From: an archaeon
Lineage (GTDB): Archaea > Thermoproteota > Nitrososphaeria > Nitrososphaerales > Gagatemarchaeaceae
Direction of reading: 5' to 3'
Assembly: GCA_021848045.1 (NCBI GenBank)
Contig: JAJZNC010000004.1
Location: forward strand, 8,611 to 72,610
DNA: 64,000 nt
In this document: one piece after another, positions 750 through 59,457 of the stretch
Numbering within the stretch: the first letter of the stretch is position 1
Layout: each line of letters begins with the position of its first letter
Translations under genes and position numbers: made by a program
The notes under the pieces: generated by a model
What the model was told of the DNA's origin: nothing
The model's database searches: none
Seen by the model: the letters and a program-made list of their open reading frames with translations, nothing else

Positions 750-3700
750 CTACGCCTGTACTCTTCTGAGGAACCCGGGCTTCGACTCGAAGATTATTCC
801 TTCCTTGGTTATCTTCTGGATGAGCTTGTCGACCTCGTCCTCGTTGGCGAACTTGTTGGTCTTCATGAGCTCCTGCCTGAAGACCTTGGCCTCGATGGGC
901 TTCCTCTCCGGGCCCTCGAGGGCCCTCAGCGTGTCCATCAGCGTCGCCAGCTTCCCCCTCTCGCCGGCGGGCTGGCCGAGGAGTATCCCAAAGTCTGCCT
1001 TGGTCTTTGTCTCCGTGTCGGTGAGGACGTCCTCCACCATCTTTTCCATCAGCGATATCGCGGTGAGGGCGTCCTCCTCGGTGACATCCTCCCTGAGCAT
1101 GAGCCTGGCCTTTGCGCTCGCGAGCCTGATTATCCCCTCGAGCGTCCTGGGGGTCGCCCCGATTGACCCCTCGGACGTGTTCCTCCTCAGCTGGAGGTAG
1201 TACTCCTTGATCCGGTTCTCGGCCTCCATGGTGAGCACCGGGGAGTAGTTCTTGGCGAACGCCACGTACTTCTTCAGGAGCTCGAACTGTATCGGAGGCG
1301 ACTCCACGTAGGTCTTCTTCCTGTGTACGTCGAGTATGTGGGTCGCCAGCTTCTCGTCCTGGCCGGGGACGGGCGTGTCCCTGAGCACGAAGATGAGGTC
1401 GAACCTCGTGAGAAGCGGGATCGGGAGGTTGATGTTGTCGATGAGGTTCTGGTAGGGGTCGTACTTGCCGAGGATCGGGTTTGTCGCGGCGAGGATCGCG
1501 GTCCTCGCGTTGAGCGTCGCGTAGATCCCTCCCTTCGCTATGGTTATCGTGTTGTGGAGCACCACCCCGGACGACACGAAGTTGTGCGTTGGCTCGACGG
1601 TGACGTCGTAGACCCAGTCCGTCTTCAGGGCGCCCTCGTTGGCCTCCTCTTCGACGGAGTCGACCCTGAGGAACCGGATGCCCATGAGCCCCCTGACGAA
1701 CCCCGTGCTCTCTCTGACCGCCTCGACCCTCCTGGAGAGCGCCCCCCTGACCTTCGCTCCCAGCTGCGCGGCGACCTCCGCGCTGCACCTCCCAGACTCG
1801 AGGCGCGAGATGGCCGACCTCGCCAGCCCGGACTCGCGGGCCAGCCTGCTCTGCGACCACCCGGAGGCGATGCGGAGCGACCGCGGGTCGGCGACCCCGC
1901 GGACGGCGGCCTCGATCTGCCCGCACCGCTCCTCGAGGCGCGCGAGGTGGCGCGAGACGGTGGCCTTCGTGGCCCCGTGCCCGGCCCCCAGGTGGCGGTT
2001 GAACGAGCCGTCGTGCCTCGTGCCCGTCTCGCGGAGCGACCCCGCCAGCAGCCGCAGGACGGCGGTCGGGAGGACGTCGTGGCCGCGGTCGTGGCGCTCG
2101 CCCCGCCTCGCCAGCCCCTCGATCCTGGCGCGCCGGGGGTCGGCCGAATCGACCACCACGTCGAGGAACCTTCCCAGCGAGTCACCGCAGACGTAGACCT
2201 TGAACGAGCGGTTCGACCTGGCGACCCTGATCCTGGAGGCGACGCCGAGCTTGAGAAGCAGGTCCTGGTAGTCCTCGGCGAGCCCCCCGGAGGCAGCCCG
2301 GTAGCACGCCGCGCCGCCCTCCACGCCGCCTGCTCCGAGGTACGCGGAGGCCAGGAACTCCCTGATGTGCGCCACGGAGGCTCCAAGGATCTTCGCGGGC
2401 GCCCTCCTGCTCCTCGCCTCGCCCACCGTCTCGGGGAAGTTCAGGGAGAGCCATCTCAGGAACGTCCTGGACGAGGACCCCAGGCCGGCCCTCCCTGACC
2501 CGAACTCGTCCCGCAGGAGCACGGCGATGTCCTCCGATGCGCGGGCGTCCAGGCCTGCGAGGTCGACCTCCCCGACGCCTCCCCTGGCAAAGTCCCCCCC
2601 GGACGCCAGGTGCCCGAGGACCCTCGCCGTCCAGAGCGTCAGCGTCTGCGGCTGCGCTACCGGACTAGCAATCTCCGACGGAGAGGCCGGGGCAAGCGCG
2701 ACCGGGGCGGACGAGTTCGGGATGGAGACGGGGCCGGGGACGAAAGCGCCCGGGCGGAGCCTCTCTGCGGGGGTCGTCGAGATCCCGTCCCCCTGGAAGA
2801 CGAACATGGGGTGCTCGGGGGTCACGAGCACGGACCTCCCGTTGGAGAACCTTACCCTTACGAACCTGTCGGGGGCCTTGTGCCTGCTCAGCCTCGAGAC
2901 CTTGGTCTTCTCGACCGTCCCGTCGTCGAGGTCGGCCGAGAAGACGCGCTGACGGAGGTCGACGGCCACGACCTCGCAGTCCTTCCCCGATACCACATCC
3001 GAGGGGTGGCTGCGGATCGCCTCCTCGACGTACTCCCCGATCCTCACCTTCCCTCCCTCGAGCAAGACCTCGCAAGACGGGTGGTACGACTGCTGTTCCA
3101 TCTGCTCGTGCAGGGCGCTCCTGTCCTCGGGCTTCATCTTGTCGAACTCGTCGATGCAGTTGTGGCTGAAGACGCCGTCCGCGACGTAGTTGTGGTCCGT
3201 CTTCATCATGAGGTCGTAGACGTATCCCTCGTAGCGCTCCCGTGAGACCGTGACGACCTCGTCCAGGAAGTAGTCCCTCTCGCCGGCCCTCCTTGAGACG
3301 ACGCTGAGCGCCTGTCCCCGTCCGCTCGCGTACCCGTAGAGAGCGGAGACGGCGCCCGCCCCGGACGCAGGCGCGTACTCCTCTGACGGCCCGGAGGAGA
3401 CCCCGCCGGGCGGCCTTTCGCGAACCCCCCCGGCCTCCTCATCGCTCGGAGGCGGCAGCCTGGAGATCTTGACCGAGCGGCTCGAAAGCGCCTGCTTCAG
3501 CCTCAGGCCGTCTCCACGGGTGCCGATCACGATCGCCCCCGCGCCGCCACCGACCCCGCGGGACGATCCCGCGACGCCGAACCTTCTCAGCGCGAGAAGC
3601 AGGTTGAGGCTCGCCCGCTCGTTCCTCGCCGCCCCGAAGACTGCGTCCCAGGCCCCCGACCCCTCCTTCGAGGAGAGCCCCGCACAGCCGCGTCCGTCCG

Positions 3701-5858
3701 AGTCGGCGACCCCCGCGAGGAAGGCCTTCAGCACCTCATCAGGCAGGGAGAGGAGGTTGCCCAGGTCGTCGGCCGTGAGCCGGGCGTAGACGTGCCCGAA
3801 GACCCGCCTGCCCGCCGCCCCGCCGATGATCGGAGGCGTGGCTCGCGTCTCCAGGGCGCTGGCCGTCGACCGCCCCTGCTCACTTGTGGAGAGAGGCCCG
3901 AAGCACAGCGACCAGTACCGCCTGAATCGCCCGATCGACGCAGGGTGCGCCGGGGGCCGGGTCGCCCCGCCCCGGGCACCGCCGTCGAGCCCGTCTCCGT
4001 AGACAAAGCCGCAGACGTACCCCATCTCAGGGGTGACCGTCGCAGCCTCGACAGGCGACCCTTCGTAGGAGTGGGGCTCCTCCCTCCACGCTCCCTCCTC
4101 GCCCAACGCGTCGACCATCGTCTTGAGCTCCGACAGGGTCGGTCGCAGGCTGCCCCTCAGGTAGTCCGGGATCCTCGAGACGCCGAGCTGAGCGGCCGCG
4201 CCCGCCCCCGAGCCGTACTTCGCCTCCAGCTTCGCCCTGAGCCGCGACCTCTCCGCCGCCGTCAGCGAGACCTCGCAGCCATCGGGAAGAAGGTCCCAAA
4301 TGTATGGCCCGTCGACCCTCCCGCAGGGGATCCGGAGGGGGGCGGCAACGGAGTCGCCCGGAGCGAACCTCGACGCCTCCCTCCACTCCATCGTCTTCCC
4401 GTCAAGGAACAGGTGGTCCGGGGTGACAACGGCGGAGAAGCCAGACCTCAGGCCGAGCCGCAGGATCTCCCCCGAGTGCAGCCGCCTCCTCAGCCTGGTG
4501 GAGACGGCGACCTTGGTCTTCAGGGAGCCGTCCTCCAGGGAGACCACCTCCCCCCCGAGCTCCGCTATCTCGTCCCTTCCGCTCGGGCTCTCGAAGCGGA
4601 TGAAGTGCAGCGTCTCCGCGAGCCCTCCCAGCCTGACAGACCTCCCGTCGAGGAGGACCGAGCTGTCCGGGTGGAGGCACGCGATGCCCTGGTCGGCCAG
4701 TACGACGACCCCCGCCTCCAGCATGAGCGTGTTCTTCTCGCGGATCACCGCGGCGGAGAGCCCCGCCGCCGTCGACCCCCTCCCCGAGGCGAACATCCCT
4801 CTGGGTGCGACCTGGGCCGCGAACTTTAGCATCTCTGACTTGGCCACGCCGGGGTCTCCTACCAGGAAGACGTTGATGTCGCCCCTCAGCTTTGTCCCGT
4901 CGGGCAGCGCGGTGGTCGGCCCGCCAACCAGGAGGAGGAGTATCGCCTCCTTGACGCGGTCGTGCCCGAGGATGCCCGGGGCCATCGACCGGATCAGCTT
5001 CTGGTACGCGTCCGGCCCCGAGGCGATGCTCTTGATTATCGCCTCGTCCTCCTTGGTGATCTGGACCTGGCTGGGCTCCTTGCTGACCAGCTCGATGTAG
5101 TTGGCGTCTATCTTGGAGCGGAACGACCTGCTCCTGGGCGTGCCGAATGAAAAGTCCGGCTCCGCTCGGACGACCCCCGTCATCACCGCCCTGTCGCCCG
5201 GCCTCGCGGTGTTGACGATGTCGCCCTCCACGTCGATGTCGAAGAACCGGGGGAGCTGCCCGGGAGGCAGCTCCTCGGGGAGCTCCTGCACCCTGAGGAT
5301 CTGGCTGTCGATGAAGGTGCTGTCCTTCTGGTCGAGCTCGAGGTTCCTTGTCTCGTCGCACCCCTCGCACTTCACCGGCTTCTTGATGCTCGGCCCCTCC
5401 TGGATGACGCGGGTGGTGTGGCCGTCCGGGCAGACGAACGCCGCGTCCACGAGGAGCGGTCTGAGCTCCGACGTCCTGATCACCATCCCTGCGAACGCTA
5501 TCATCTTGTCGAGGTGGGACGTGTCGACCTTCCTCAGCGCGACCCTGTCCGTGATCCCCCGCGTCCTTATCATGAGGTTCTTCCTGATCTCCCCGGCGTA
5601 GGCGGGGTTCTCCGTGCTGAGCACCTCGAAGGTGGCCGACTTGAACTCCTTCAGCGCCCTGTCGGGGTCGTTCAGGAGGCTCTCGGCTAGGTCGGTGTCG
5701 TAGTGTATGAGGTCCTCGTAGTCTAGGACCATCGACTTCCTCCCCGCCGCCGCCATCTGGCCCAGGGAGACCTGGTACTTGCGCTCGCCCGATTTGTCCT
5801 CGAAGCCCCGGAGGAAGTCCTCGAACCTCTCGGAGAGCCCCCGCGTTAAGACCGCCAT
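750..5858 (-). CDS. mcm: MCM replicative helicase precursor (1702 aa) carrying two inteins; predicted spliced extein 682 aa
   Basis: ORF track. Zn finger CPDGH..CEGC and Walker A GDPGVAKS are present. Walker B is split as ADQGIA / intein / CIDEFDKM. MEQQ / intein / TITIAKGG is also split. TRFDLIFVL and a C-terminal winged-helix tail follow. Confidence 0.95.
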   Translation of the reverse strand: MAVLTRGLSERFEDFLRGFEDKSGERKYQVSLGQMAAAGRKSMVLDYEDLIHYDTDLAESLLNDPDRALKEFKSATFEVLSTENPAYAGEIRKNLMIRTRGITDRVALRKVDTSHLDKMIAFAGMVIRTSELRPLLVDAAFVCPDGHTTRVIQEGPSIKKPVKCEGCDETRNLELDQKDSTFIDSQILRVQELPEELPPGQLPRFFDIDVEGDIVNTARPGDRAVMTGVVRAEPDFSFGTPRSRSFRSKIDANYIELVSKEPSQVQITKEDEAIIKSIASGPDAYQKLIRSMAPGILGHDRVKEAILLLLVGGPTTALPDGTKLRGDINVFLVGDPGVAKSEMLKFAAQVAPRGMFASGRGSTAAGLSAAVIREKNTLMLEAGVVVLADQGIACLHPDSSVLLDGRSVRLGGLAETLHFIRFESPSGRDEIAELGGEVVSLEDGSLKTKVAVSTRLRRRLHSGEILRLGLRSGFSAVVTPDHLFLDGKTMEWREASRFAPGDSVAAPLRIPCGRVDGPYIWDLLPDGCEVSLTAAERSRLRAKLEAKYGSGAGAAAQLGVSRIPDYLRGSLRPTLSELKTMVDALGEEGAWREEPHSYEGSPVEAATVTPEMGYVCGFVYGDGLDGGARGGATRPPAHPASIGRFRRYWSLCFGPLSTSEQGRSTASALETRATPPIIGGAAGRRVFGHVYARLTADDLGNLLSLPDEVLKAFLAGVADSDGRGCAGLSSKEGSGAWDAVFGAARNERASLNLLLALRRFGVAGSSRGVGGGAGAIVIGTRGDGLRLKQALSSRSVKISRLPPPSDEEAGGVRERPPGGVSSGPSEEYAPASGAGAVSALYGYASGRGQALSVVSRRAGERDYFLDEVVTVSRERYEGYVYDLMMKTDHNYVADGVFSHNCIDEFDKMKPEDRSALHEQMEQQSYHPSCEVLLEGGKVRIGEYVEEAIRSHPSDVVSGKDCEVVAVDLRQRVFSADLDDGTVEKTKVSRLSRHKAPDRFVRVRFSNGRSVLVTPEHPMFVFQGDGISTTPAERLRPGAFVPGPVSIPNSSAPVALAPASPSEIASPVAQPQTLTLWTARVLGHLASGGDFARGGVGEVDLAGLDARASEDIAVLLRDEFGSGRAGLGSSSRTFLRWLSLNFPETVGEARSRRAPAKILGASVAHIREFLASAYLGAGGVEGGAACYRAASGGLAEDYQDLLLKLGVASRIRVARSNRSFKVYVCGDSLGRFLDVVVDSADPRRARIEGLARRGERHDRGHDVLPTAVLRLLAGSLRETGTRHDGSFNRHLGAGHGATKATVSRHLARLEERCGQIEAAVRGVADPRSLRIASGWSQSRLARESGLARSAISRLESGRCSAEVAAQLGAKVRGALSRRVEAVRESTGFVRGLMGIRFLRVDSVEEEANEGALKTDWVYDVTVEPTHNFVSSGVVLHNTITIAKGGIYATLNARTAILAATNPILGKYDPYQNLIDNINLPIPLLTRFDLIFVLRDTPVPGQDEKLATHILDVHRKKTYVESPPIQFELLKKYVAFAKNYSPVLTMEAENRIKEYYLQLRRNTSEGSIGATPRTLEGIIRLASAKARLMLREDVTEEDALTAISLMEKMVEDVLTDTETKTKADFGILLGQPAGERGKLATLMDTLRALEGPERKPIEAKVFRQELMKTNKFANEDEVDKLIQKITKEGIIFESKPGFLRRVQA
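1551..3089 (-). mobile_element. MCM intein 2 (513 aa) inserted at MEQQ/TITIAKGG
   Basis: Starts SYHPSCEVLLEGG, which aligns residue for residue with intein 1 CLHPDSSVLLDGR, hence Ser1. Block B is TPEH. It ends SSGVVLHN followed by Thr+1. The interior has degenerate LAGLIDADG-like LGHLASGGD / FLASAYLGAGG and an XRE-like HTH (SLRIASGWSQSRLARESGLARSAISRLESG). Confidence 0.85.
3159..4679 (-). mobile_element. MCM intein 1 (507 aa) inserted in Walker B, with LAGLIDADG homing-endonuclease motifs
   Basis: Starts CLHPDSSVLLDG (Cys1) and has block B TPDH. LAGLIDADG-like GFVYGDG and FLAGVADSDG are present. It ends DGVFSHN followed by Cys+1. Removal restores ADQGIACIDEFDKM. Coordinates were counted codon by codon and checked against the DNA. 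Confidence 0.9.
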
Positions 5859-5877: not shown

Positions 5878-6474
5878 CTAGGGCTCCCCGAGGATGGCCT
5901 TCTTCCATCCTGCGGATATCTCGCTTGCCACGGAGAAGAAGGCGCTCTCCTCCGGGGTTATCCTGTCTGCTATCGTCTTGATGCTCGCGGAGGAGCTCAT
6001 CGAGAGGAGCTTGCTGAGCCTCCTCCCGACGAGGTCGTAGCTCGTGTTCCTGAGCTTCTCGTAGTCCTCTCGCCTGTACTTGCCGCTCTCGACCCCTTGC
6101 CTGACCGCTGCGAGCCTTCGCCTCATCCTGATGTAGAAGCTGGGGTCGAGCGGGGAGAGCTGGAGGGATGCGATGATCTTCTCCCTGGTGAGCGCCTTGA
6201 ATATCTCGACCTCGAAGGCCTCTTCCTGGAGGTCTGCCAGGTCGAGCGCCACCAGCTCCTCAGCCACCCACCGGGGCATCTCCACCCTCTCGCCCTCCTT
6301 CGACCTTGCCAGGACGAGGTCGCCGACCTCCATCCCCTCGATGGCAGACCGCATGGTCACCCTCACCGGGGAGAGCAAGAACTCCCTCTCCCTCTGCTCG
6401 AAGATCTTCGATACCTCGGCTCCAGGGTCCTCCAAGAGGGTCTCCAACAACTCCTTTTCTTCGGGGACTCGCAA
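5878..6474 (-). CDS. GINS subunit-like protein (Gins23-type), directly upstream of mcm
   Basis: 198-aa helical ORF with LQLSPLDPSFYIRM, an L..L.P.FY motif of GINS A-domains. It lies 19 nt upstream of mcm, as in the Sulfolobus gins23-mcm arrangement (from memory). The start could be TTG 6474 or TTG 6450. Confidence 0.55.
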   Translation of the reverse strand: MRVPEEKELLETLLEDPGAEVSKIFEQREREFLLSPVRVTMRSAIEGMEVGDLVLARSKEGERVEMPRWVAEELVALDLADLQEEAFEVEIFKALTREKIIASLQLSPLDPSFYIRMRRRLAAVRQGVESGKYRREDYEKLRNTSYDLVGRRLSKLLSMSSSASIKTIADRITPEESAFFSVASEISAGWKKAILGEP

Positions 6475-9843: not shown

Positions 9844-12800
9844 CTAGCCGAGCCTCTTCGGGGGGGACCTCGCGCAGAGGAGGACTGCCATCCCCTCCTC
9901 GACCGTGGTCAGGAACGGGACCTGCAGCTCGACCGCCTTGCGGCGGACCTTGTAGAGGTCCCTCCTCGTCTTGTTGAGGTTGGTGCTGAGGGAGATGACG
10001 AGGGCGGCCTTCCCGCTGCCAACCATCTCGAGCATCTCGTCCACCGTGGCGGCCCTGGCCGCCCCCCCGAGCGAGGCGGCGGTCTCCGGGTTGGACACGA
10101 AATCTATCCCGGCGCTCTTGAACCCCTCGAGCATCGACCTGGCGCCTGATGTGTCGGAGCTCTCGTCGGCGAGGATTATCCCCGCGTCGCCCTTGGAGGG
10201 GATCCTCAGCCCCGACGCGATGAGCGCCCTGCTCATCGCCTCGGAGAGGGTCGCCCCGAAGCAGGCCACCTCGCCGGTCGACCGCATCTCTACGCCTATC
10301 GTGGGGTCTGCCCCCTCCATCTGCATGAACGAGAACTGGGGCGCCTTCACAGCGAACTGCTCCGGCTCAGCGACGTCCCCCATCCCAGCAAGTGACCCTC
10401 CGAGTATCACGGAGGCGGCGAGCTTGATGAGGTTGGCCCCCGTGGCCTTCGAGACGAACGGGAGCGACCTCGATGCCCTGAGGTTGCACTCGATGACCTG
10501 GACGTCGTCCTTGACCACCAGGTACTGGATGTTGAAGGGCCCCCTGACCCCGAGCTCCTTCGCGATCGCCCGCGTGTACGCCCTTATCTTGTCCTTGGCC
10601 TCCCCGGAGACCGAGACCGTCGGTATCGTCATTATCGCGTCCCCCGAGTGGACCCCTGCCTTCTGGACGTGCTCCATGATGGCGCCGATCACGGTGGTCT
10701 CGCCGTCAGAGACGGCGTCCACCTCCACCTCCTTGGCGTCCTCGAAGAACTTGCTTATCGTGACCGGGTAGTTCGGGTTGACCTCGGCAGCCTTTGCGAG
10801 GAAGCTCTCGAGCTCCCTGCTCCCCCAGATCACCCTCATGGCAGAGCCGCTCAGGACGTGCGACGGCCTCACTATCACCGGGTACCCTACCCTGTCGCAG
10901 AACTGGCGCGCCTGCTTCATCGACCTGAAGCTCCCCCACGCCGGCTGGGGGATGCCTATCTTGTCGAGGAGGAAGGCGAACCTCTCCCTGTCCTCCGCCC
11001 TCTCTATCGAGTCGGCGCTTGTCCCCATGACCCTCACCCCCTTCTTGTCCAGCTCGAGGGCCAGGTCGTTCGGGGTCTGGCCGCCGACGCAGAGCACCGC
11101 GCCGAGCGGCTTCTCCCTCTCGTAGATCGAGAGGACCCTCTCCGCCGTGAGCTCCTCGAAGTAGAGCCGGTCGCTCATGTCAAAGTCCGTGGAGACGGTC
11201 TCGGGGTTGCAGTTGACCACCACGACCTCGTCCACCTTCCCGCTCTCCTTGAGGGCCCAGGCCATGTTCATCGTCCCCCAGTCGAACTCCACGGAGCTGC
11301 CTATCCTGTAGGGACCGGCTCCCAGCACCATCACCTTCCTCTTCTCGCTCGGCTTCGCCTCGTCGGCGGACGCGCTGTAAGTGACGTAGAGGTAGTTCGT
11401 CCTGGCGGGCCACTCCGCGGCCAGGGTGTCTATCGCCTTCACCTTCGGGGTTATCCCCATCCTCTCGCGCATCGCCCGGACATCGTCCTCGTCGATGTCG
11501 ACCGCGTTGGCCACCTGCTTGTCGGAGAACCCCAGCCGCTTGGCCTCGCTGAGCACCTCGGGGTCGCGGTCGACCCCCTCCCTTCCGCTCGTCTCCACCC
11601 TGCGGTAGGCGTCGACTATGTTCTTGAGCTTCGAGACGAACCACGGGTCGATGACGCTCAGCCTGGAGACCTCCTCCTCGGGGATGCCGACCATGAGCGC
11701 CTCTACCACGTCGAAGATTATCTGGTCTGTCGGGTTGCGGAGCCTCTTCTTCAGCACCTCGAGGTCGTCCTCCTCGACCAGCCTGCGTATCACACCGTCG
11801 TACCTTATGTTGAGCATCCTCGACGCCTTCTGGACGGCCTCCTCGAAGCCGCGCCCGATCGCCATCACCTCCCCTATGGACTTCATCGCCGTCCCTATCC
11901 CCCTCGAGGCGCCCTCGAACTTCTTGGTGTCCCACCTGGGCATCTTGAGGACGCAGTAGTCCAGGGACGGCTCGAACATGGCGGTGGTCACGCCGGTGAC
12001 CTTGTTCTTCAGCTCGGTGAGCGAGTACCCGAGGCAGATCTTGGCGGCGATGTACGCGATGGGGTAGCCCGTGGCCTTGGAGGCCAGGGCAGACGACCTA
12101 GAGAGGCGGGCGTTGATCTCTATCGCGCGGTACGTCTCCGACCTGGGCTCGAGGGCGAACTGCATGTTGCACTCCCCGACTATCCCGCACCTCCTGGCAG
12201 ACTTCAGGGCGAGCGAGCGCAGCATGTGGTACTCCCTGTTGGTGATGGTCTGGGATGGCGCGACCACGATGTTGTCGCCGGTGTGCACCCTCATGCTCAG
12301 GACGTTCTCCATGTTGCAGACGATCTGCCCGTTGTCGTCGGCGTCGCGCATGACCTCGTACTCGATCTGCTTCCAGTGGCCGATGTACTCCTCGATCAGG
12401 ACCTGGTGGGCCATGCTCAGGTTCAGCCCCCTCTGGACTATCTCGTCGAGCTCTCTGGCGTTGTGGGCGACGCCGCCGCCCCTCCCTCCCAGCGTGTAGG
12501 CCACCCTCATTATCACGGGGTAGCCGAGCTCCTTCACCACCGAGCGTGCCTCGTCGACGGAGTAGGCCGGCTTGCTCCTGGGGCAGGCAACCCCGATCTC
12601 GGTCATCGTGTCCTTGAAGAGCTGCCGGTCCTCGGTGATCTCGATCCCCTTGACCTGGGTGCCCAGGACCTTGACGCCGTACTTCGAGAGGACCCCTGCC
12701 CTCGAGATGGCGACCCCGCAGTTGAGCGCCGTCTGGCCCCCGAACCCGAGGAGTATCGCGTCCGGCCTCTCTTTCTCGATGATCTGGGTCACAAAGTCCG

Positions 12801-13017
12801 GGTTGACGGGCAGGAAGTGGATCTTGTCCGCCATCCTCGCGTCGGTCTGGATCGTCGCGATGTTCGGGTTGACGAGGATCGAGCGTATACCCTCCTCCCT
12901 CAAGGCCTTTAGGCATTGGCTACCGGAGTAGTCGAACTTGCGGCCGCCTTTTCAGCGGCTCTCGCCTGCTTCTCCGATCTTTATTGCCCCGCTCCCCAGT
13001 ACAAGCGCACTCTTCAC
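9844..13017 (-). CDS. carB: Carbamoyl-phosphate synthase large subunit, interrupted by an in-frame TGA (12952-12954) within a 24-nt insertion
   Basis: The track ORF 9844..12903 shows two ATP-grasp halves (RLSRSSALASKATGYPIA etc.) but lacks the N-terminus. The same frame continues upstream as [42 protein letters not shown]. The GTG at 13017 overlaps the carA stop (GTGA). Confidence 0.85.
12937..12960 (-). other. Candidate bulge-helix-bulge mini-intron (24 nt) in carB mRNA
   Basis: The RNA is AGCCGCUGAAAAGGCGGCCGCAAG. The intron helix is GCCGC/GCGGC and the central helix is GGCG/CGCA (3 WC pairs plus G.A). These are flanked by 3-nt bulges AGA and AGU on opposite strands. Excision joins GAG|UUC and restores EAGEFDYSG. 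See findings. Confidence 0.45.
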
Positions 13018-14192
13018 GCTTTCATGCTTCGAACTCTCTCACCCGCCGCGCTCTTCTTCTGAGCTAGCATCATCTCTGCGAACCTGTCGAAGACGAACTC
13101 CGTGTCGTACGGCCCCGGTGCTGCCTCGGGGTGGAACTGGACGGCGATCGCGGGCTTGCTCACGTGGAAGAGCCCCTCGACGCTCCTGTCGTCCCCGTTG
13201 ACGAACCACGGCTTCAGCTCCGTCTTCGAAAGCGACTCCGGGTCGACCGCGTAGCCGTGGTTCTGGCTGGTGACGTACCCCCTTCCAGACGTGGTCTCGA
13301 CCACGGGCTTGTTCTGGCCGCGGTGCCCGTACTTCAGCTTGTACGTCTCCCCGCCCTGAGACATCCCGAGCACCTGCTCGCCGAGGCATATCCCCAGGAC
13401 AGGCACCCCCGAGTCGACGAGCCTCGAAGTGGCCTTCACGGTCTCGGCGCACAGGCGCGGGTCTCCCGGGCCGTTGCTCACTATCACCCCGGCCGGGTCG
13501 TGCTTCATGATCTCCGCGTAGGGCGAGTCGAACGGCACCCTCACCACGGAGTAGCCCCTCCCGAGCATGTTCCTGATTATGCTCTCCTTCACCCCGCAGT
13601 CCACGACCACCATCTTCTTGTCCGATATCCCGTACGCCGCCGGCCTGCTCACGGAGACCTGCTTCACGTAGTCGACCGAGTCGTAGCGGGCAGACCTCTC
13701 CAGGAGCCTCTTGAGCTCCCTCCTGCTCGGGGGCTCGCGGCCCGTCGCCAGCGCGCACATCATCACTCCCCGCTCCCTGATGGTGGTCACCAGGGCGCGA
13801 GTGTCAACGCCCTCTATGCCTGGGACGCCCTGGTCCTCCATCCATCGGGAGAGCGTCTGGACGGACGCCCAGTGGCTCGGCCTGGCGCAGTGCTCCTGGA
13901 CTACTATGCCCGTCACCTTGACGCTCGCCGACTCGAAATAGCGGGGGAGGCCGAAGACGTCCTTCTCCTCCATGCTCGGGACTCCGTAGTTCCCGATGAG
14001 GGGGTAGGTGAAGCAGAGCACCTGGCCGGAGTACGAGGGGTCGGTCATCGACTCGGGATAGCCGACCATCCCCGTGTTGAACACGAGCTCGCCTACCACG
14101 GTCGCCTCCGCGCCGAATCCCGTTCCGAGGAGGAGCGTCCCGTCCTCAAGAAGGAGAAAGGCGGGCCTGCTCCCCTCTGGTTTTTCCATCAC
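13014..14192 (-). CDS. carA: Carbamoyl-phosphate synthase small (glutaminase) subunit
   Basis: GATase-I motifs LGICLGEQVL (Cys nucleophile), HGHRGQNKPV and FHPEAAPGP. The start is GTG 14192 or ATG 14189. Confidence 0.93.
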   Translation of the reverse strand: MMEKPEGSRPAFLLLEDGTLLLGTGFGAEATVVGELVFNTGMVGYPESMTDPSYSGQVLCFTYPLIGNYGVPSMEEKDVFGLPRYFESASVKVTGIVVQEHCARPSHWASVQTLSRWMEDQGVPGIEGVDTRALVTTIRERGVMMCALATGREPPSRRELKRLLERSARYDSVDYVKQVSVSRPAAYGISDKKMVVVDCGVKESIIRNMLGRGYSVVRVPFDSPYAEIMKHDPAGVIVSNGPGDPRLCAETVKATSRLVDSGVPVLGICLGEQVLGMSQGGETYKLKYGHRGQNKPVVETTSGRGYVTSQNHGYAVDPESLSKTELKPWFVNGDDRSVEGLFHVSKPAIAVQFHPEAAPGPYDTEFVFDRFAEMMLAQKKSAAGERVRSMKA

Positions 14193-26576: not shown

Positions 26577-26641
26577 CTCCGCTTGCGGAGCCGTCCCGGG
26601 GGAGTGAAAAGCCTTTGGCCGGGGCCGCCGGCGAGCACCTT

Positions 26642-26649
26642 CATAAAGG
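26642..26649 (+). promoter_or_regulatory. TATA-like element (CATAAAGG) for archease-rtcB
   Basis: Centred about 27 nt upstream of TTG 26673. Confidence 0.4.
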
Positions 26650-26672
26650 CCAGGGGGAGGGTCCCGACAGCC

Positions 26673-27122
26673 TTGGTCGCCAGGAGGGCCCCGCGGTCGG
26701 GGTTCAGGTTCCTCTCGAAAATCGCCCTGGCGGACATCGCCTTCGTGGCCAGGGGCGACTCGCTCGGGTCGCTCTTCGAGTCCGCGGCGAGGGCGCTCAC
26801 CGAGGTCATGGTCGACCGGAGGACGGTGGTGGGGCGGGTCCACCGGGAGCTCGATGTCTCCTCACCCTCTGTCGACCGGCTCCTCTACGACTTCCTCACC
26901 GAGCTGATCGTCCTCAAGGACGTAGAGTCGCTCCTCTTCAAGGAGTTCCGCGTGGAGGTGGCCACCGGCAGGGGGTTCCGCCTGACCTGCGAGATGGACG
27001 GGGAGGCGATCGACAGGGAGAGGCACGCCCTGAGGAACGACGTGAAGGCGGTCACGATGCACATGTTCGGGGTCAAGAAGGCGGGGCCTCGCTGGGTGGC
27101 AACCGTCGTCCTCGACATCTGA
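26673..27122 (+). CDS. Archease (RtcB activator)
   Basis: FRFLSKIALADIAFVARGDSLGSLFESAARAL.. matches the archease N-terminus (f.fl.HTADi.f.a.G). The C-terminal KAVTMHMF..VVLDI also fits. It sits immediately upstream of rtcB, as is common. Confidence 0.75.
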   Translation: MVARRAPRSGFRFLSKIALADIAFVARGDSLGSLFESAARALTEVMVDRRTVVGRVHRELDVSSPSVDRLLYDFLTELIVLKDVESLLFKEFRVEVATGRGFRLTCEMDGEAIDRERHALRNDVKAVTMHMFGVKKAGPRWVATVVLDI

Positions 27123-27179: not shown

Positions 27180-28637
27180 TTGACAGAAGTAAAGAACGCC
27201 AAGCAGGTCTCTGACGTCGTCTGGGAGATACCGGAGTCGTTCAAGCCGGGGATGAACGTCCCTGCCCGGATCTACGCCACGAAGAAGCTCCTCGAGGCGA
27301 TGGACAACGGCGTGATAGAGCAGGTCACCAACGTGGCCTCCCTCCCGGGGATAGTGAATTGCTCCTACGCGATGGCGGACGCGCACTGGGGCTACGGGTT
27401 CCCCATCGGCGGCGTCGCAGCCTTCGACCTCGAAAAGGGCGTCATCTCGCCTGGCGGCATCGGGTTTGACATCAACTGCGGGATGCGCCTCATAAGGACC
27501 AACCTGCGCTACTCTGAGGTAAGGCCGAGGATAAAGGAGCTCGTAGACCTGCTGTTCAGGCTCATCCCCACCGGGGTCGGCGTCAAGGGGTTCGTCAGGC
27601 TCAGCCAGCCCCAGTTCGAGGACGTCATGAGGTGGGGCGTGAAGTGGTGCGCCGAGAACGACTACGGCTGGGAGGACGACGTCGACAAGGTCGAGGAGGG
27701 AGGCTACATCAAGGGGGCAGACCCGTCCAAGGTGAGCCAGCAGGCCTCGAGCCGGGGCATCAACCAGCTCGGGACCCTGGGCTCCGGCAACCACTACTGC
27801 GAGGTACAGGTGGTCGACCCGGCCAGGTTCTTCGATGCGGAGGTGGGGAAGCGCTTCGGCCTGGTCCACGACGACCAGGTGGTGGTGATGGTGCACTGCG
27901 GGAGCAGGGGGTTTGGGCACCAGGTGGGCTCCGACTACCTCCGGGTCTTCGACGGGGCTATGAAGAAGTACGGCATCACGGTCAGGGACAGGGAGCTTGC
28001 GTGCGCCCCCTTCGCCTCAAAGGAGGGCGGCGACTACTACGGGGCGATGGTCTGTGCCGCGAACATGGCTTTCGCGAACAGGCAGGTCATCGTGATGAGG
28101 ATCCGCGAGGCCTTCAAGCAGGTCTTCCACAAGGACCCTGAGGCCCTTGACATGCACATAGTCTACGACGTCTGCCACAACATCGCAAAGGTGGAGCGGC
28201 ACAAGGTCGGGAAGTCGTCCAGGGACGTCCTCGTCCACAGGAAGGGGGCGACCCGGAGCTTCGGTCCCGGCCACCCGGACGTCCCGGCGGTCTACCGGGA
28301 GCTGGGGCAGCCCGTGATAATCGGAGGCTCGATGGAGACGGGGTCGTACCTCCTCCTGGGGACCAAGAAGGCCATGGAGGAGACCTTCGGCTCCACCGCC
28401 CACGGCTCCGGGCGGACGATGTCCCGGACCGCCGCGAAGAGGCAGGTGAGCGGGGCGGAGCTCCAGAGGAGCATGGAGAAGCGCGGCATATACGTGAAGG
28501 CGGCCACCATGGAGGGCCTCGCGGAGGAGGCGGGGATGGCCTACAAGGACATCTCGGAGGTCGTCGAGACGATGCACCAGGCGGGCATCTCCCTGAAGGT
28601 CGCCGCGCTCCGCCCGATCGGGAACATAAAGGGCTGA
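27180..28637 (+). CDS. rtcB: RNA-splicing ligase RtcB
   Basis: ADAHWGYGFPIGGV, GSGNHYCEVQ, HCGSRGFGHQ, HRKGATR, GGSMETGSY. Confidence 0.95.
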   Translation: MTEVKNAKQVSDVVWEIPESFKPGMNVPARIYATKKLLEAMDNGVIEQVTNVASLPGIVNCSYAMADAHWGYGFPIGGVAAFDLEKGVISPGGIGFDINCGMRLIRTNLRYSEVRPRIKELVDLLFRLIPTGVGVKGFVRLSQPQFEDVMRWGVKWCAENDYGWEDDVDKVEEGGYIKGADPSKVSQQASSRGINQLGTLGSGNHYCEVQVVDPARFFDAEVGKRFGLVHDDQVVVMVHCGSRGFGHQVGSDYLRVFDGAMKKYGITVRDRELACAPFASKEGGDYYGAMVCAANMAFANRQVIVMRIREAFKQVFHKDPEALDMHIVYDVCHNIAKVERHKVGKSSRDVLVHRKGATRSFGPGHPDVPAVYRELGQPVIIGGSMETGSYLLLGTKKAMEETFGSTAHGSGRTMSRTAAKRQVSGAELQRSMEKRGIYVKAATMEGLAEEAGMAYKDISEVVETMHQAGISLKVAALRPIGNIKG

Positions 28638-38643: not shown

Positions 38644-40557
38644 TTGGCGCAAAAGGCTAACCACGTAAGCCTCATGGGTACGATTCTAAACAGTATCCCA
38701 GCGGAGGCTCAGATAACAAGGATCGAGTACGAGGGCCCTCGGATCGCGCTCTACACCAAGAACCCAAAGTACCTCCACCAGAACAACTACATCATCTCCG
38801 AGATCGTCAACACCGTCAAGAAGCGCGTCGTCACGAGGACGGAAAAGTCGATCCGCAAGCAGGAGCAGGACGCAAAGGCGATCCTCGAGAAGACCCTCCC
38901 GGTGGAGGCGGGGGTCACCAACATGTTCTTCGACGACGCGACGGGGGAGGTCACCGTCGAGGCCAACAACCCGCGTGTCCTCTCGGCCGACGTCGGCTAC
39001 GACCTGGGGGACCTGATGGGGCAGACGGGCTGGAAGGTCAAGGTGAGAAAGGCCCCGCACATAGCCTCCTCGGCCATCCAGACCGTCTACTACGCGCTGA
39101 GGGCCGGTAGCGACGAGAGGGAGCGGTTCTACAGGGAGCTCGGGGAGACGATATTCAGGCCCCGCTACATCCAGGCAGAGCAGGTCACGATAAAGTGCCT
39201 GGGGGCCGGGCGAGAGGTTGGGCGGTCTTGCTGGCTCGTCGAGACTTCGGAGAGCAAGGTCATCATGGACGCGGGGATCTCCCCCGGCGCAAAGAACAGC
39301 TGGGACGCCTACCCCAGGCTCGACTGGGCGGACGTCCACCTGAACGAGATAGACGCCGTGGTGCTTAGCCACGCCCACCTCGACCACATGGGCTTCCTAC
39401 CGGCGCTCTACAAGTTCGGGTACGACGGGCCGGTGTACTGCAGCGAGCCGACCCTGCCCCTCATGACGCTCCTCCAGAACGACTTCATCAAGATCGCGCA
39501 GATCGAGGGGGGGCGGATCCTCTACGACCAGAAGGACGTCCGCGACCTCATACAGCACACCATCACCCTCCAGTACGGCACGGTCACGGACATCTCGCCC
39601 GACATCAAGCTGGTCCTGAACAACGCGGGGCACATCCTCGGCTCAGCGACCGTCCACCTTCACATAGGGGAGGGGGTCCACAACATCGTCTACACCGGCG
39701 ACTACAAGGCCGGCCGGACCCAGCTCTTCGACGCCGCAAGCTGGAACTTCCCGAGGGTCGAGACCCTCATCACCGAAGCGACCTACGGCAACAAGGAGGA
39801 CATCATGCCGCCCCGCGGCGAGGTCGAGATGAACTTCGTCAACACGATAAACGGCACCCTGGCGAACGGCGGGAAGGTCCTCATCCCGATACCCGCAGTC
39901 GGGCGCGCCCAGGAGATAATCCTGGTCATCGACCACTACATGAGGAACAAGGTCCTCACGGAGGCGCCGGTCTTCCTCGAGGGGATGATCTCGGAGGCCA
40001 CGGCGATCCACGTCTCCTACGCCGACTACCTCTCGCGCGAGGTGAGGAGCAAGATCCTCGAGCAGGGGGTAAACCCGTTCGTGAGCGAGTACTTCACCTC
40101 GATAGAGCACCCGTCGGGGAGGGACGAGGCCCTGCGTGAGGGGCCCGCGATCATCATGGCCACCTCAGGCATGCTGGAGGGCGGCCCGGTCCTCCAGTAC
40201 TTCGACCACATCGCGCCCTCGGAGAAGAACATGATACTCTTCGTCTCGTACCAGGTCCAGGGGACGCTCGGCAGGCGCGTGCTCGACGGGACGAACCAGG
40301 CGAGCCTGATGGGCGACAACGGGAAGATCAAGATCGTCGACGTGAGGGCCCGCACGGGCAAGGTGGAGGGCTTCAGCGGGCACAGCGACTACAACGAGAT
40401 CATCAGGTTCATAGGCCGGATGCGACCCAAGCTCCAGCAGGTCATCGTCCAGCACGCGGACCCAAGGAAGATCGACAACCTGGCCCACTCGATCCAGCGG
40501 ATCTACAGGGTGCCCGTCCTGAGGCCGGCCGTGCAAGAAGCCGTCCGCGTGTTCTAG
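38644..40557 (+). CDS. aCPSF1/FttA-type KH + beta-CASP metallo-beta-lactamase ribonuclease
   Basis: N-terminal KH repeats, LSHAHLDHMG (HxHxDH) and beta-CASP motifs. It sits right after psmB, a widely conserved archaeal pairing. Confidence 0.92.
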   Translation: MAQKANHVSLMGTILNSIPAEAQITRIEYEGPRIALYTKNPKYLHQNNYIISEIVNTVKKRVVTRTEKSIRKQEQDAKAILEKTLPVEAGVTNMFFDDATGEVTVEANNPRVLSADVGYDLGDLMGQTGWKVKVRKAPHIASSAIQTVYYALRAGSDERERFYRELGETIFRPRYIQAEQVTIKCLGAGREVGRSCWLVETSESKVIMDAGISPGAKNSWDAYPRLDWADVHLNEIDAVVLSHAHLDHMGFLPALYKFGYDGPVYCSEPTLPLMTLLQNDFIKIAQIEGGRILYDQKDVRDLIQHTITLQYGTVTDISPDIKLVLNNAGHILGSATVHLHIGEGVHNIVYTGDYKAGRTQLFDAASWNFPRVETLITEATYGNKEDIMPPRGEVEMNFVNTINGTLANGGKVLIPIPAVGRAQEIILVIDHYMRNKVLTEAPVFLEGMISEATAIHVSYADYLSREVRSKILEQGVNPFVSEYFTSIEHPSGRDEALREGPAIIMATSGMLEGGPVLQYFDHIAPSEKNMILFVSYQVQGTLGRRVLDGTNQASLMGDNGKIKIVDVRARTGKVEGFSGHSDYNEIIRFIGRMRPKLQQVIVQHADPRKIDNLAHSIQRIYRVPVLRPAVQEAVRVF

Positions 40558-53386: not shown

Positions 53387-53802
53387 CGAGAGCCATCCTC
53401 CTGATCTGGGAGTCCCCTCCTCACGGCGAGGGTCGCATCGCTCGTCCCGCGGGGGTCGCCCGCCTCCCGCTGGCGCCACAGCGTGGCCGACCCCGAGGCT
53501 CCCATCTCGGAGAGGCTCCCCGGGGAGGGCTGATAAGTCGTCCCCGGGGGATGCGGGAGCCTCGCGAGGAGCCCTGGCCCGCCCCTGGAGGCGCTCACCC
53601 CACCGCCCAGGCCCCGGTCGTCCGGAGGCCCGCCGGAGGCGCCCGGCGCGCACCGGCCTGCGCAGCCGCCCGAGGCGACCCCCGAGCGGGGCCGATTCCG
53701 GGTCGCCTTCGCGTGAGGCTGGTCCACGCCCCGGATCCCCGGTTCCCGGTAGAAAGGCATGGCGAGACAAACCCTTTACGCCGGCCGGCCGCGCCAGCCA
53801 CC

Positions 53803-55107
53803 ATGCCGCGGGTGGCGGTCGTCGGGGGAGGCGCGGCCGGGGTCTTCGCCGCGCTCGCGGCCGCGCGGCTCGGCGCAGACGCGACCCTCTTCGAGTCCTC
53901 GCAGAGGGTCGGTGTCTCTAGGGCCCTGATGCCGCTGATGCTCTCGGATGGTAGGGGCGAGGATGGGCTCGTCCTCCCAGAGGCGAGGGAGCTCTCGGGC
54001 GCGGGGGTGGAGGTGAGGAAGGGCTTCGAGGTGGCCGCGGTGGCACGGAGGGAGGGGCTCCTGGAGGTGGTCCGCCGCTCGAACGGGGGAGAGAGGGCGC
54101 GCTTCGATTCGGTCGTGGTCTCCACCGGGACGGCGCCGTCAGTCCCGCAGGTCAGGGGCGCCTCGAAGCCGGGGGTCTTCGTCCTCAGGGGGCCCTCGGA
54201 CTACCTCGCCCTCTCCGAGGGACTGGGCTCGATCGAGAGGGTGGCTGTCTGGGGGCCGGTCCTCCTCGGGTTGAAGGTGGGCGAGGCGCTCGCCCGCAGG
54301 GGAAGTTCGGTCTCGGTCTATTGCGGGGCGAGCGGGCTCGGCGGACAGCTCTCGGCGCCGGTCGCCGCGATGCTGCGCAGGTCGGCCATCGAGGGAGGGG
54401 CAGGGGCGCCTGCGCTCGTAGACGGGTCGATCGACTCGATCCTCGGCGTCGGGAGGGTCGAGGCGGTCGCCTCTGGCGGGGGGGTCTCCGCGTGCGACGC
54501 GGTCGTCCTTTTGCCGAATGGTGCCCCCTCCTACCCTGATGCCGGGTGCGCGAAGGGGCCGAACGGCGGCCTCCTCGTCGATAGCTCGATGGAGACCAGC
54601 GTCCCGGGGGTCTTCGCGGCGGGCGACTCGGCCGAGGTCAGGTTCAAGGCGGGGTCTGTGCCCGCGAGGCTCTTCTCCACGGCGAGGGTCGGCGGGGAGG
54701 TCGCCGGCGCCAACGCCTCCGGAGGGATGAGGACGGCCTCCTTCTCCTGGGCGATGGAGCAGACGGTCTTGGGGGTGGAGCTCTGCACAGCCGGCCTCAG
54801 CGAGGCGGAGGCCCGCTCCGTGGGGCTCGACCCTGCCACCGTCGAATGCGCGTTCCCGGGCGAGGGCAGCCCAGGCCAGACCCTGGTCTCCATGGTCTAC
54901 GACAGGCCCACCCGGCTGGTCTGCGGACTCGAGCTGGCCGGCTGGCGGGCGTCGTCTCTCGCAGCCGCCGCATCCATGGTGGTGGGCCTAGGCCTGACCG
55001 CAGACCGGCTGGTGCACCTCGAGTCCCCCTACGCGCCGGGGCTCGCGCACGAGCGCTCTCCAATATCCTTAACAGCCCGACAAATCCCGGAGTTACAGGG
55101 CGCGTGA
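53803..55107 (+). CDS. FAD-dependent pyridine-nucleotide-disulfide oxidoreductase family protein (divergent Nox/CoADR-like)
   Basis: The N-terminus is VAVVGGGAAGVFAALAAARLG and VFAAGDSA is present. The second dinucleotide motif is degenerate (VAVWGPVLLGLKVGEAL). The track ORF is trimmed to ATG 53803. Confidence 0.7.
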   Translation: MPRVAVVGGGAAGVFAALAAARLGADATLFESSQRVGVSRALMPLMLSDGRGEDGLVLPEARELSGAGVEVRKGFEVAAVARREGLLEVVRRSNGGERARFDSVVVSTGTAPSVPQVRGASKPGVFVLRGPSDYLALSEGLGSIERVAVWGPVLLGLKVGEALARRGSSVSVYCGASGLGGQLSAPVAAMLRRSAIEGGAGAPALVDGSIDSILGVGRVEAVASGGGVSACDAVVLLPNGAPSYPDAGCAKGPNGGLLVDSSMETSVPGVFAAGDSAEVRFKAGSVPARLFSTARVGGEVAGANASGGMRTASFSWAMEQTVLGVELCTAGLSEAEARSVGLDPATVECAFPGEGSPGQTLVSMVYDRPTRLVCGLELAGWRASSLAAAASMVVGLGLTADRLVHLESPYAPGLAHERSPISLTARQIPELQGA

Positions 55108-56535: not shown

Positions 56536-57804
56536 TCAGAACCCCGCGGCGAGCGGGTCCTCGGGCTTTAGCACCTCCCTCAGGAGGACGGTCGCGTACT
56601 CGCCCTTCCCCAGCGAGAACTCGAGCACGAACCCCCCGCCCACGGCCTCGTACGACAGGTCTTTCGACAGGAGGGGCGCCGCCCTGAAGCCGCCCTCGCT
56701 GCTCACCTCCTCGGCCTCCTTCACGTAGAACGAGGAGGGGGGCGTCCCCTCCTCCTTGATCACCTCTGCCAGGAAGGCGTCGAGCCGCGAGCCGTAGTTC
56801 CTGTACGCATAGCCGACGATCTGGAGCAGCGGGACCGCCTCCGCCCCGGGGGGAGCCGCCTCCTTCACCCCGTGCACCCTGCCGGTCGAGAGGCCGCCCT
56901 CCTTCACGGCCGACCAGTTGTCCCCGGTGACCACGCGTGATATGTCCAGGCCAGAGGCCAGGGCCCTGCCCAGGGCCAGGTTGAACACGTACGCCTGGTA
57001 CGAGTTGACCAGGAGGCGCCTGATGGGGACGGGTATCCTCCTTATGGCCCCGAGGTGGTCCCCGGGCTTGGCTGAAAGGTGCGAGGCCATCCTCCTCTCG
57101 ATGTCCTGCCCCCTCGAGAGGAGGGGGATGGCCTGCGCATACCTCCCCTCTGCGCAGAGCCTCCTCGCCTCGCCTGCGTCTTGGTCGTCACCCTCCCTTG
57201 GCTCGGAGAGCAGCAGGGCGACCGCCTGGGCGAAGTCCCTCAGGACGATGGCGCGGCCGGCCCTCCTGTTCACGCCGCCCTTGAGCCCGAACCTCTGGTA
57301 GCCGAAGAAGTTCGCGACACGCCTCCCCCGGCACGCCTCGAAGCAGCCCTCGATCTCGGCGCTCAGGTCCTCCTCCGTCTCGACGAGTATCCGGAACCGG
57401 TTGCCCACCAGCATCCCCCGGGTGAGGGGCTTCGAGAACCCGACCAGCTCTCCCTCGAACCTGCTCCCGTGGAGCTCGGGAGGGGCCGACGCCCTGCTGC
57501 TCCTCGCGCTGATGTACTGGACGACCGTCGCGTTCTTGTCCTTCAGGCCGGCGTAGTTGGTCTCGCTCTTTATCATGGCGGCCATCTCCCTCGCGACGTG
57601 GGGGGTGTCGATCCCCGCCTTCGTGACCCTGTAGACGGGGACAAGGCCCGGGCCCCTGGTCTGCACGAGGCCCTCGAGCGATATCAGCTCCTGGACCCTG
57701 AAGCCGTCGTAGCTCGTGCGCAGGCGCCCCGCCCGGCGCGGCCCTCCGGTGGAGTATGCCGTGAGGCCCGACTCGACGTCCTTCGGGGGCGGCCGCGCGC
57801 TCAA
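56536..57804 (-). CDS. truD: tRNA pseudouridine synthase D (TruD/Pus7)
   Basis: YDGFRVQEL, YAGLKDKNA (catalytic Asp), NFFGYQRFG, NSYQAYVFN. Only the last 422 codons of the 979-aa track ORF are real. The TTG at 57804 overlaps the pth2 stop (TTGA). Confidence 0.88.
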   Translation of the reverse strand: MSARPPPKDVESGLTAYSTGGPRRAGRLRTSYDGFRVQELISLEGLVQTRGPGLVPVYRVTKAGIDTPHVAREMAAMIKSETNYAGLKDKNATVVQYISARSSRASAPPELHGSRFEGELVGFSKPLTRGMLVGNRFRILVETEEDLSAEIEGCFEACRGRRVANFFGYQRFGLKGGVNRRAGRAIVLRDFAQAVALLLSEPREGDDQDAGEARRLCAEGRYAQAIPLLSRGQDIERRMASHLSAKPGDHLGAIRRIPVPIRRLLVNSYQAYVFNLALGRALASGLDISRVVTGDNWSAVKEGGLSTGRVHGVKEAAPPGAEAVPLLQIVGYAYRNYGSRLDAFLAEVIKEEGTPPSSFYVKEAEEVSSEGGFRAAPLLSKDLSYEAVGGGFVLEFSLGKGEYATVLLREVLKPEDPLAAGF

Positions 57805-58148: not shown

Positions 58149-58230
58149 TTCGGCCAGACGGGAGCGCCTCCTGAATCGAAGGGTTATTACGCGCCGGGTT
58201 AAGGCTTGCCCCGACGCCGGACTCCGTCCC

Positions 58231-59427: not shown

Positions 59428-59449
59428 GCTCGCGTCGCGCTTCGGAAGG

Positions 59450-59457
59450 TATAATTC
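59450..59457 (+). promoter_or_regulatory. TATA box TATAATTC for the Zn-ribbon / EF-1beta unit
   Basis: Centred 30 nt upstream of TTG 59483. Confidence 0.5.

Follow-up and report, generated by a model that had tools for sequence, protein, structure and literature searches.

A predicted tRNA-type (bulge-helix-bulge) intron in the carB pre-mRNA of Nitrososphaerota

The carA-carB locus and its 24-nt insert

The DNA analysed here (the window, 64,000 nucleotides [nt] with a GC content of 66%) belongs to an uncultured soil archaeon of the family Gagatemarchaeaceae (GenBank assembly GCA_021848045.1, contig JAJZNC010000004.1, positions 8,611 to 72,610) and carries on its minus strand the carbamoyl-phosphate synthase (CPS) genes carA and carB, the latter an essential gene that is interrupted near its start by a short insert that is predicted to be a tRNA-type, bulge-helix-bulge (BHB) intron of the pre-mRNA. 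The gene for the small subunit, carA (13014..14192), was identified by its translation and by the Pfam domains CPSase_sm_chain and GATase on an identical protein, and its stop codon TGA (13014-13016) overlaps the carB start codon GTG (13015-13017) in the sequence GTGA. From GTG 13017 one carB frame extends to the stop codon at 9844-9846 and is broken only by a TGA at 12952-12954, located in an extra segment of exactly 24 nt (12937-12960) that separates the conserved residues GEAGE and FDYSG. The 19 codons preceding this segment, ending in GAG, are referred to as exon 1 (12961..13017) and the 1030 intact codons that follow it, together with the stop codon, as exon 2 (9844..12936). Deletion of the 24 nt yields a CarB of 1049 amino acids whose N-terminus aligns to solved CPS structures (human CPS1 and E. 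coli CarB residues 8-146) with no gap across the junction. These coordinates, as well as the count of eight codons in excess of a gapless CarB, are those proposed in the initial annotation of this DNA and were verified throughout.

The insert of the window is a multiple of three and contains a single TGA, features that would suit an error of sequencing or assembly, or read-through of the TGA to give an 8-residue insertion in the protein. The CarA protein of the window was detected on 17 contigs of independent ENA and Logan assemblies (in the exact look-up the GTG-start form matched nothing, and the form with an ATG start one codon later did match). Eight of these independently assembled contigs extend into carB, and they are 100% identical to one another over the 141 nt that surround the insert, which excludes an assembly artefact. 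This identity and the frameshifting inserts found in 35 of 67 relatives (described below) refute both explanations, to which we assign a practically negligible probability.

Conservation, fold and codon constraints of the insert

Relatives were collected by scanning the protein encoded by exon 2 against one genome per GTDB species, which gave 80 loci, nearly all of them from Nitrososphaerota (Thaumarchaeota), the closest match being a metagenome-assembled genome (MAG) from Danish soil with 92% amino-acid identity. The DNA upstream of FDYSG was surveyed in the 77 sequences in which the N-terminus is present (76 loci and the window). An insert occurs at the identical codon boundary (GEAGE / FDYSG) in 67 of these, including Nitrosopumilus sp. 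b1, Candidatus Nitrosotalea sp. TS, many Nitrosotenuis and Nitrososphaera MAGs and the clade of the window. In the closest relative of the window the 24-nt architecture recurs, with a change in the loop and a G-C pair restored. The inserts measure 20 nt (11 loci), 21 nt (27), 22 nt (14), 23 nt (1), 24 nt (2), 25 nt (1), 26 nt (6), 27 nt (1), 29 nt (2) and 30 nt (2). Thirty-five are not a multiple of three and the remaining 32 all contain an in-frame stop; thus translation cannot run through the insert in any of the 67, and exact removal at the RNA level would be needed to produce CarB. The comparison of carB in close relatives, proposed as a check in the initial annotation, found the same site occupied and the architecture kept, and the candidate intron is conserved across the sampled Nitrososphaerota clades and not peculiar to the window genome.

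If the frame of exon 1 is continued into the intron, a stop codon is met in 54 of the 67 cases; in 32 of them this stop (UAA, UAG or UGA) occupies the third intron codon, where the hairpin loop begins. The intron loops are A-rich (UAAA, CAAAA). The early stops may reflect selection to abort the translation of unspliced mRNA quickly, or mere loop composition.

All 55 distinct sequences share one parse, in which exon 1 ends in ...AUCGGAGAAGCA-GGCG-AR, the intron consists of A, a stem of 3-8 bp, a loop of 3-13 nt, the returning stem, CG[CU][CUA] and A[AGU], and exon 2 starts with UUYGACUACUCCGG. The geometry is invariant, with a 3-nt A-R-A bulge, a helix of four positions and two intron nucleotides after the helix; the second bulge, on the opposite strand, reads A-N-U across the family. 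In the window the intron RNA would be A-GCCGCUGAAAAGGCGGC-CGCA-AG. The 5' strand of the central helix H, GGCG (12963..12966), would be contributed by the Gly-Glu codons GGC GAG of exon 1 and its 3' strand, CGCA (12939..12942), by the 3' end of the intron, forming three Watson-Crick pairs and an outer G.A (relatives with CGCC, as in most of them, or with CGCU or CGUC have four standard pairs). The 5' bulge AGA (12960..12962) would part helix H from an intron-internal hairpin h' (12943..12959) with the stem GCCGC(U)/(G)GCGGC and the loop GAAAA, the five-pair inner helix GCCGC/GCGGC joining 12955-12959 with 12943-12947, and the 3' bulge AGU (12936..12938) lies on the opposite strand. Cleavage is predicted to follow the second nucleotide of either bulge (AG^A and AG^U), between 12961 and 12960 and between 12937 and 12936, respectively. 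The topology is that of a BHB, i.e., two bulges on opposite strands with a 4-bp helix between them, each bulge 3' of its strand, and the inner helix h' adjoins the 5' bulge, with a stem of at least 4 bp in all but one sequence.

Further out, RNAalifold and single-sequence folds predict an imperfect exon-exon helix between AUCGGAG (12972..12978, codons Ile-Gly-Glu) and CUCCGGU (12922..12928, codons Tyr-Ser-Gly), parted from helix H by the 3' bulge or internal loop. All inner helix, bulge and central helix positions had been given correctly in the initial annotation, which had also described the outer helix as weak; the single adjacent A-U pair on which this description was based stands, but a conserved exon-exon helix of 7 bp had escaped it. 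One adjacent A-U or G-U pair is possible on the 3' side in 44 of 51 sequences, and the 7-bp helix sits 5-7 nt further out. What makes the 3' site relaxed is that a single A-U pair adjoins it and that a small internal loop shifts the solid exon helix outward. The predicted carB motif is in consequence of the relaxed (HBh'-like) kind that is seen in many cbf5 and crenarchaeal tRNA introns, with a canonical 5' site.

Base pairing was evaluated by fitting a three-helix model to an alignment of 49 distinct sequences and comparing it with shuffled and slid-register controls. Standard pairs occupy 93.0% of the cells, versus 86.6% in the shuffled alignments (0 of 500 reach the observed value) and 20-49% in the slid registers, and double-sided changes are found in 75 cells, versus 25 (again 0 of 500) and 2-21, respectively. 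Compensatory double changes affect five of the six modelled pairs of the inner stem, which appears as GCCGC/GCGGC, GCUGG/CCAGC, GUCAC/GUGAC, GUCG/CGAC and GUUAAAUU/AAUUUAAC, among its variants. The inner three pairs of helix H (alignment columns 23-54, 24-53 and 25-52) are standard in 49 of 49 sequences, and at the outer position 31 have G-C or G-U and 18, including the window, have G.A; the 5' bulge is a 3-nt A-R-A in all 49. In the outer exon helix 97% of the cells are paired, with covariation from A-U to G-C at the terminal pair. The occurrence of one site and one architecture in 67 of the 77 carB loci, together with this covariation, excludes chance. The BHB core (H and h') is contained in the minimum free energy (MFE) fold of 35 of the 49 sequences; in the window it lies 0.6 kcal/mol above the MFE.

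A covariance model built from the 49 sequences has a single match in the window (12913-12987; 89.9 bits, E 3e-24), and as the model includes the window's own sequence this evidences uniqueness within the window and is not independent support. A search for other copies of the hairpin in the window gave one match only, with three mismatches and at about chance level, so that the element is not a dispersed repeat. No Rfam family matched anywhere in the window at gathering thresholds.

Codon usage at the helix-forming positions was compared between 51 distinct intron-bearing sequences and 15 intronless relatives. The Gly codon of the outer helix is GGA in 49 of the 51 intron-bearing genes, whereas the intronless ones use GGC (7), GGT (5), GGG (2) and GGA (1). 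The Gly codon of helix H is invariably GGC in the former and GGA (5), GGC (5), GGG (4) or GGT (1) in the latter; likewise, Tyr is TAC in 51 of 51 against TAC in 9 and TAT in 6, and Ser is TCC in 51 of 51 against TCT in 8, TCC in 4, TCA in 2 and TCG in 1. The sharpest contrast is offered by marine Nitrosopumilaceae with 33-35% GC, in which the intronless genes read ATTGGTGAAGCTGGTGAATTTGATTATTCTGG and the intron-bearing ones keep ATCGGAGAAGCAGGCGAA...TTCGACTACTCCGG. Only genes with the intron have frozen synonymous sites in the exon codons predicted to pair; intronless genes, those of the AT-rich marine lineages included, vary freely at them. This pattern would represent a clear case in which selection on RNA structure overrides codon bias, even at 33% GC.

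The codon data also bear on programmed translational bypassing of the type known from gene 60 of phage T4, in which the ribosome would take off at the Glu codon, skip the hairpin and land before UUC. Although a hairpin directly after the take-off codon and an in-frame stop within a few codons in most members (the third intron codon in 32 of 67) are what such a process would use, no landing codon matches the take-off GAR, and for this reason bypassing fails: the take-off codon is GAA or GAG and the last intron triplets are CAA, AAG, UAA, AAA, UAU, AAU and CAG, with no correlation between the two. Bypassing would also leave unexplained the pairing of exon GGCG with the 3' end of the intron, the fixed 3-nt bulge and the frozen TAC and TCC codons downstream, and it is accordingly given only a very slight probability.

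A further possibility is that carB is a pseudogene, or that a truncated CarB is translated from the internal TTG 12903 and the 19 upstream codons are non-functional remnants. Gene finders start carB at this TTG, giving an open reading frame (ORF) of 1019 amino acids, in every assembly of the window organism that was examined, and some intronless contigs have a nonsense or frameshift mutation further downstream. Against this, exon 2 is intact, and the start codon and the motif of exon 1 are kept across 67 divergent genomes with synonymous variation; synonymous changes at the Ala, Ile and Lys codons that immediately precede the helices are seen in intron-bearing and intronless genes alike. The conservation of the exon 1 peptide amid such variation, despite an out-of-frame exon 2 in half of the genomes, points to selection at the protein level. 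A truncated CarB would be devoid of a motif present in the human and E. coli enzymes, and a decaying remnant would show neither hairpin covariation nor a fixed insertion geometry. Truncation or decay is thus as improbable as bypassing, in our estimate a matter of a few chances in a hundred at most. In view of the frameshift or stop in every homologous insert, the same truncated mis-call of carB is likely wherever the intron is present.

Evolution, predicted splicing and the context of the window

A quick neighbour-joining distance tree, constructed with the first 400 residues encoded by exon 2, places the predicted intron in all of the major sampled clades. The groups without it are nested among intron-bearing ones (loci L019/L022/L024/L062, L021/L030 and L081), as well as within Nitrososphaera (L039/L045/L049) and within Nitrosopumilaceae (L098/L100/L106), and the intronless relatives are devoid of exactly the predicted 20-30 nt. 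This nesting implies an old gain followed by at least four to five precise losses at the predicted junction. Contigs of the Joint Genome Institute (JGI) were also searched for the predicted spliced junction with intron-type exon flanks. Of the 29 matches, most come from unrelated bacteria or archaea in which those codons occur by chance, and nine represent Thaumarchaeota-like intronless alleles, among them L098, L100, L106, L109, L117, L119 and L121.

The intronless carB of L121 (the same as L126; JGI 3300033402, Ga0326728_10057682, 4350-5467), which is near the window's clade, is genomic, as the contig spans the divergent argH/argG and carA/carB. It keeps the intron-type exon flanks ATTGGAGAAGCCGGCGAA|TTCGACTACTCCGG with exactly the predicted nucleotides deleted and has a frameshift about 120 codons into carB, explained either by an assembly indel or by a gene in decay from which the intron was recently and precisely lost. 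The contig of L117 (the same as L125; JGI 3300011332, Ga0126317_10116664) comprises 2.7 kb with only same-strand carA-carB sequence. Its identity to L076, which bears the intron, amounts to 93% across 2.7 kb and to 95.6% across 900 nt of exon 2, and precisely the 22-nt insert is missing from the contig. A single in-frame nonsense codon (Q to stop) occurs after the junction, at codon 120 of carB. Should the JGI sample be a metatranscriptome, the contig could represent a spliced transcript of the operon. Matches to the spliced N-terminus of Nitrosopumilus were considered as transcripts and rejected, as they were short fragments only, with the DNA of genomic intronless marine lineages and relaxed codons.

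Three metagenome contigs of marine Nitrosopumilaceae (L090, L091 and L092) have an intronless carB that is apparently broken about 100 codons in. A second intron was considered in L090 and L092 and discarded, the breaks being a homopolymer indel (L090) and a single TAA point nonsense (L092). The breaks are probably sequencing or assembly errors in all three contigs, the causes having been seen in L090 and L092 only.

Enzymes that could join the exons are encoded in the window on the plus strand, by an archease gene (RtcB activator, 26583..27122; Pfam PF01951, E 7e-35) and a gene for the 3'-phosphate RNA ligase RtcB (27180..28637; PF01139, E 9.6e-170), in agreement with the initial annotation. 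The archease domain covers residues 49-179 of its ORF, indicating that the true start is probably downstream of 26583. Archease lies directly upstream of RtcB on the same strand, 57 nt apart, an arrangement that resembles the 'tRNA splicing operon' of other archaea. To our knowledge, only endonucleases of the (alpha-beta)2 and epsilon2 types act on relaxed motifs. An (alpha-beta)2 splicing endonuclease (EndA) with broad specificity, which accepts relaxed motifs, is reported to be conserved in Thaumarchaeota (PMC5829648). The BHB has been described as a 4-bp helix between two 3-nt bulges, in which tRNA positions 32-35 pair with the intron; cleavage after the second nucleotide of each bulge is deduced from the intron position 37/38 (PMC4090602), consistent with the rule on which the initial annotation had relied. 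When this rule was applied, the conserved CarB junction was restored in frame in 67 of 67 loci, whatever the length of the insert.

Based on these observations, the following mechanism can be proposed. The (alpha-beta)2 endonuclease would cut after the second nucleotide of each bulge, RtcB and archease would join GAG to UUC, and the 24-nt intron would be released, restoring the 1049-aa CarB; translation of an unspliced carB mRNA would stop at the TGA after 21 codons. The occurrence of splicing, with EndA as the nuclease and RtcB as the ligase, is what we infer.

Several results weigh against this interpretation. No spliced transcript could be demonstrated among the contigs covered by two protein searches and the JGI junction scan; in the search with the window's own spliced N-terminus no match exceeded 83% identity. 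No EndA was found among the 40 ORFs, of the 55 tiled in the window, that were scanned with Pfam. A canonical outer helix directly closing a 3-nt 3' bulge was not found, and RNAalifold and MFE folds favour a 5-nt bulge or an internal loop on that side. The window itself has G.A as the outer pair of H, and in its 56-nt and 96-nt folds the BHB is not the MFE structure. In addition, exon covariation is limited by coding constraint, so that the outer helix rests mainly on conservation.

Two of these results, the absence of EndA from the scanned ORFs and a 3' site that departs from the canonical 3-nt bulge, would also favour excision at the same bonds by other machinery, either another nuclease-ligase pair or a self-processing RNA. 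Yet the 4-bp helix, the 3-nt bulge and the frame-restoring cut fit the definition of an EndA substrate in all 67 loci, and the (alpha-beta)2 enzyme found in Nitrososphaerota/Thaumarchaeota is known to act on relaxed motifs. A hairpin of 20-30 nt is too small for known self-splicing introns, and no Rfam family matches. Nothing points to a different excision machinery, which is considered improbable, if somewhat less so than bypassing or a truncated gene.

Taken together, the inserts of the relatives, their covariation, the frozen exon codons and the precise losses back the BHB mini-intron put forward in the initial annotation, and 12937-12960 very probably represents a tRNA-type (BHB) intron, relaxed on its 3' side, of the carB pre-mRNA. 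A broader and rather unlikely proposal is that the intron, far from being a neutral relic, has served as a conserved post-transcriptional checkpoint since the common ancestor of the sampled Nitrososphaerota, in which splicing by EndA/RtcB would gate CarB, and with it arginine and pyrimidine supply, at a site 19-25 codons into the ORF, while translation of unspliced mRNA would be aborted by a stop that lies in frame within the hairpin loop or immediately behind it; this low estimate applies to these elements jointly. The proposal may be extended to a larger group of mRNA mini-introns in Thaumarchaeota that have escaped annotation, of which carB would be the first to come into view. A window-wide scan for BHB-like mini-introns that would merge ORFs returned 2411 candidates, an outcome too noisy to be informative in sequence of 66% GC.

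Other features of the window may be mentioned. On the minus strand (750-5858) a 1702-aa MCM helicase ORF is interrupted by an intein (Intein_splicing, LAGLIDADG and helix-turn-helix domains) and is adjoined by a GINS-like gene (5878-6474), so that protein-level splicing and a predicted RNA-level intron share one window. Two other RNA-processing genes are encoded nearby. A 979-aa ORF (56536-59475, minus strand) has a TruD/Pus7-type pseudouridine synthase domain at its C-terminus and a long N-terminal part with no domain, which may be an over-extension of the ORF in GC-rich DNA. The plus strand encodes the termination factor aCPSF1/FttA (38644-40557). A region of about 1 kb (53771-54796) is without an ORF of at least 80 aa in the greedy tiling and has no Rfam match even at permissive thresholds. 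No tRNA genes were detected in the 64-kb window by ARAGORN, which intron-containing archaeal tRNAs may escape.

Significance and comparison with known systems

A full-text literature search, with most subscription journals outside its coverage, uncovered no mention of an intron in carB or in any other mRNA of Thaumarchaeota. If the interpretation is correct, carB would be the second known protein-coding gene family with such an intron, after cbf5 of some Crenarchaeota, and protein-dependent splicing of archaeal mRNA would be no one-gene curiosity, affecting a central metabolic enzyme. The candidate intron is conserved in ecologically dominant ammonia oxidisers (Nitrosopumilus, Nitrosotenuis, Nitrosotalea, Nitrososphaera) and in relatives that do not oxidise ammonia. 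As a natural system for which cultured strains are available, it may serve to study the recognition by EndA of relaxed motifs built from codons, the coordination of splicing with coupled transcription and translation, and the gain and precise loss of introns.

Introns in the cbf5 pre-mRNA of Crenarchaeota were reportedly described by Watanabe in 2002 and by Yoshinari in 2006. These introns often have a relaxed BHB, and the cbf5 genes of Cenarchaeum and Nitrosopumilus are listed as intronless (Yokobori 2009, PMC2738675). Apart from a case in the 5' untranslated region of a Haloferax mRNA, crenarchaeal cbf5 is the only other reported archaeal mRNA with a BHB intron (2020 study, PMC7714728). The predicted carB intron shares with it a short intron within a protein-coding gene whose borders fold as an often relaxed BHB motif, hosts with a hetero-oligomeric (alpha-beta)2 endonuclease, a patchy distribution with gains and losses, and a gene that gene finders mis-call as split or frameshifted. 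In contrast, carB encodes a core metabolic enzyme and not an RNA-modification enzyme, in another phylum; its intron lies 19-25 codons from the start and is far more widely conserved (all major Nitrososphaerota clades sampled); and its splicing is inferred, while that of cbf5 has been shown experimentally.

The introns of archaeal tRNAs are said, following Marck and Grosjean in 2003, to have either canonical or relaxed BHB motifs. The carB element resembles them in its 4-bp helix with a bulge on either side and a cut behind the second nucleotide of each (PMC4090602), and in having one strand of the helix in the exon and the other at the 3' end of the intron, with EndA, RtcB and archease as the expected enzymes. 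Its length of 20-30 nt was counted within the usual 12-25 nt median range of tRNA introns. It differs in its host, the coding region of an mRNA, whose codons supply the exon parts of the motif, and in its outer helix, which is displaced by an internal loop and is not an anticodon stem.

A non-cbf5 mRNA substrate of the archaeal splicing endonuclease is HVO_1309 of Haloferax volcanii (Schwarz 2020, PMC7714728). Unlike the intron proposed here, that of HVO_1309 is located in the untranslated leader, in a euryarchaeon with a homodimeric enzyme, and its removal restores no reading frame. In eukaryotes, HAC1/XBP1 splicing likewise relies on a protein-only nuclease that cuts a coding mRNA at two stem-loops, changes the reading frame and involves, in metazoa, exon joining by RtcB; however, the nuclease is IRE1 and not the tRNA splicing endonuclease, and the system is regulated by stress. 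In comparison with these systems the mechanism proposed for carB is familiar, the gene and the phylum are new and the conservation is unusually broad.

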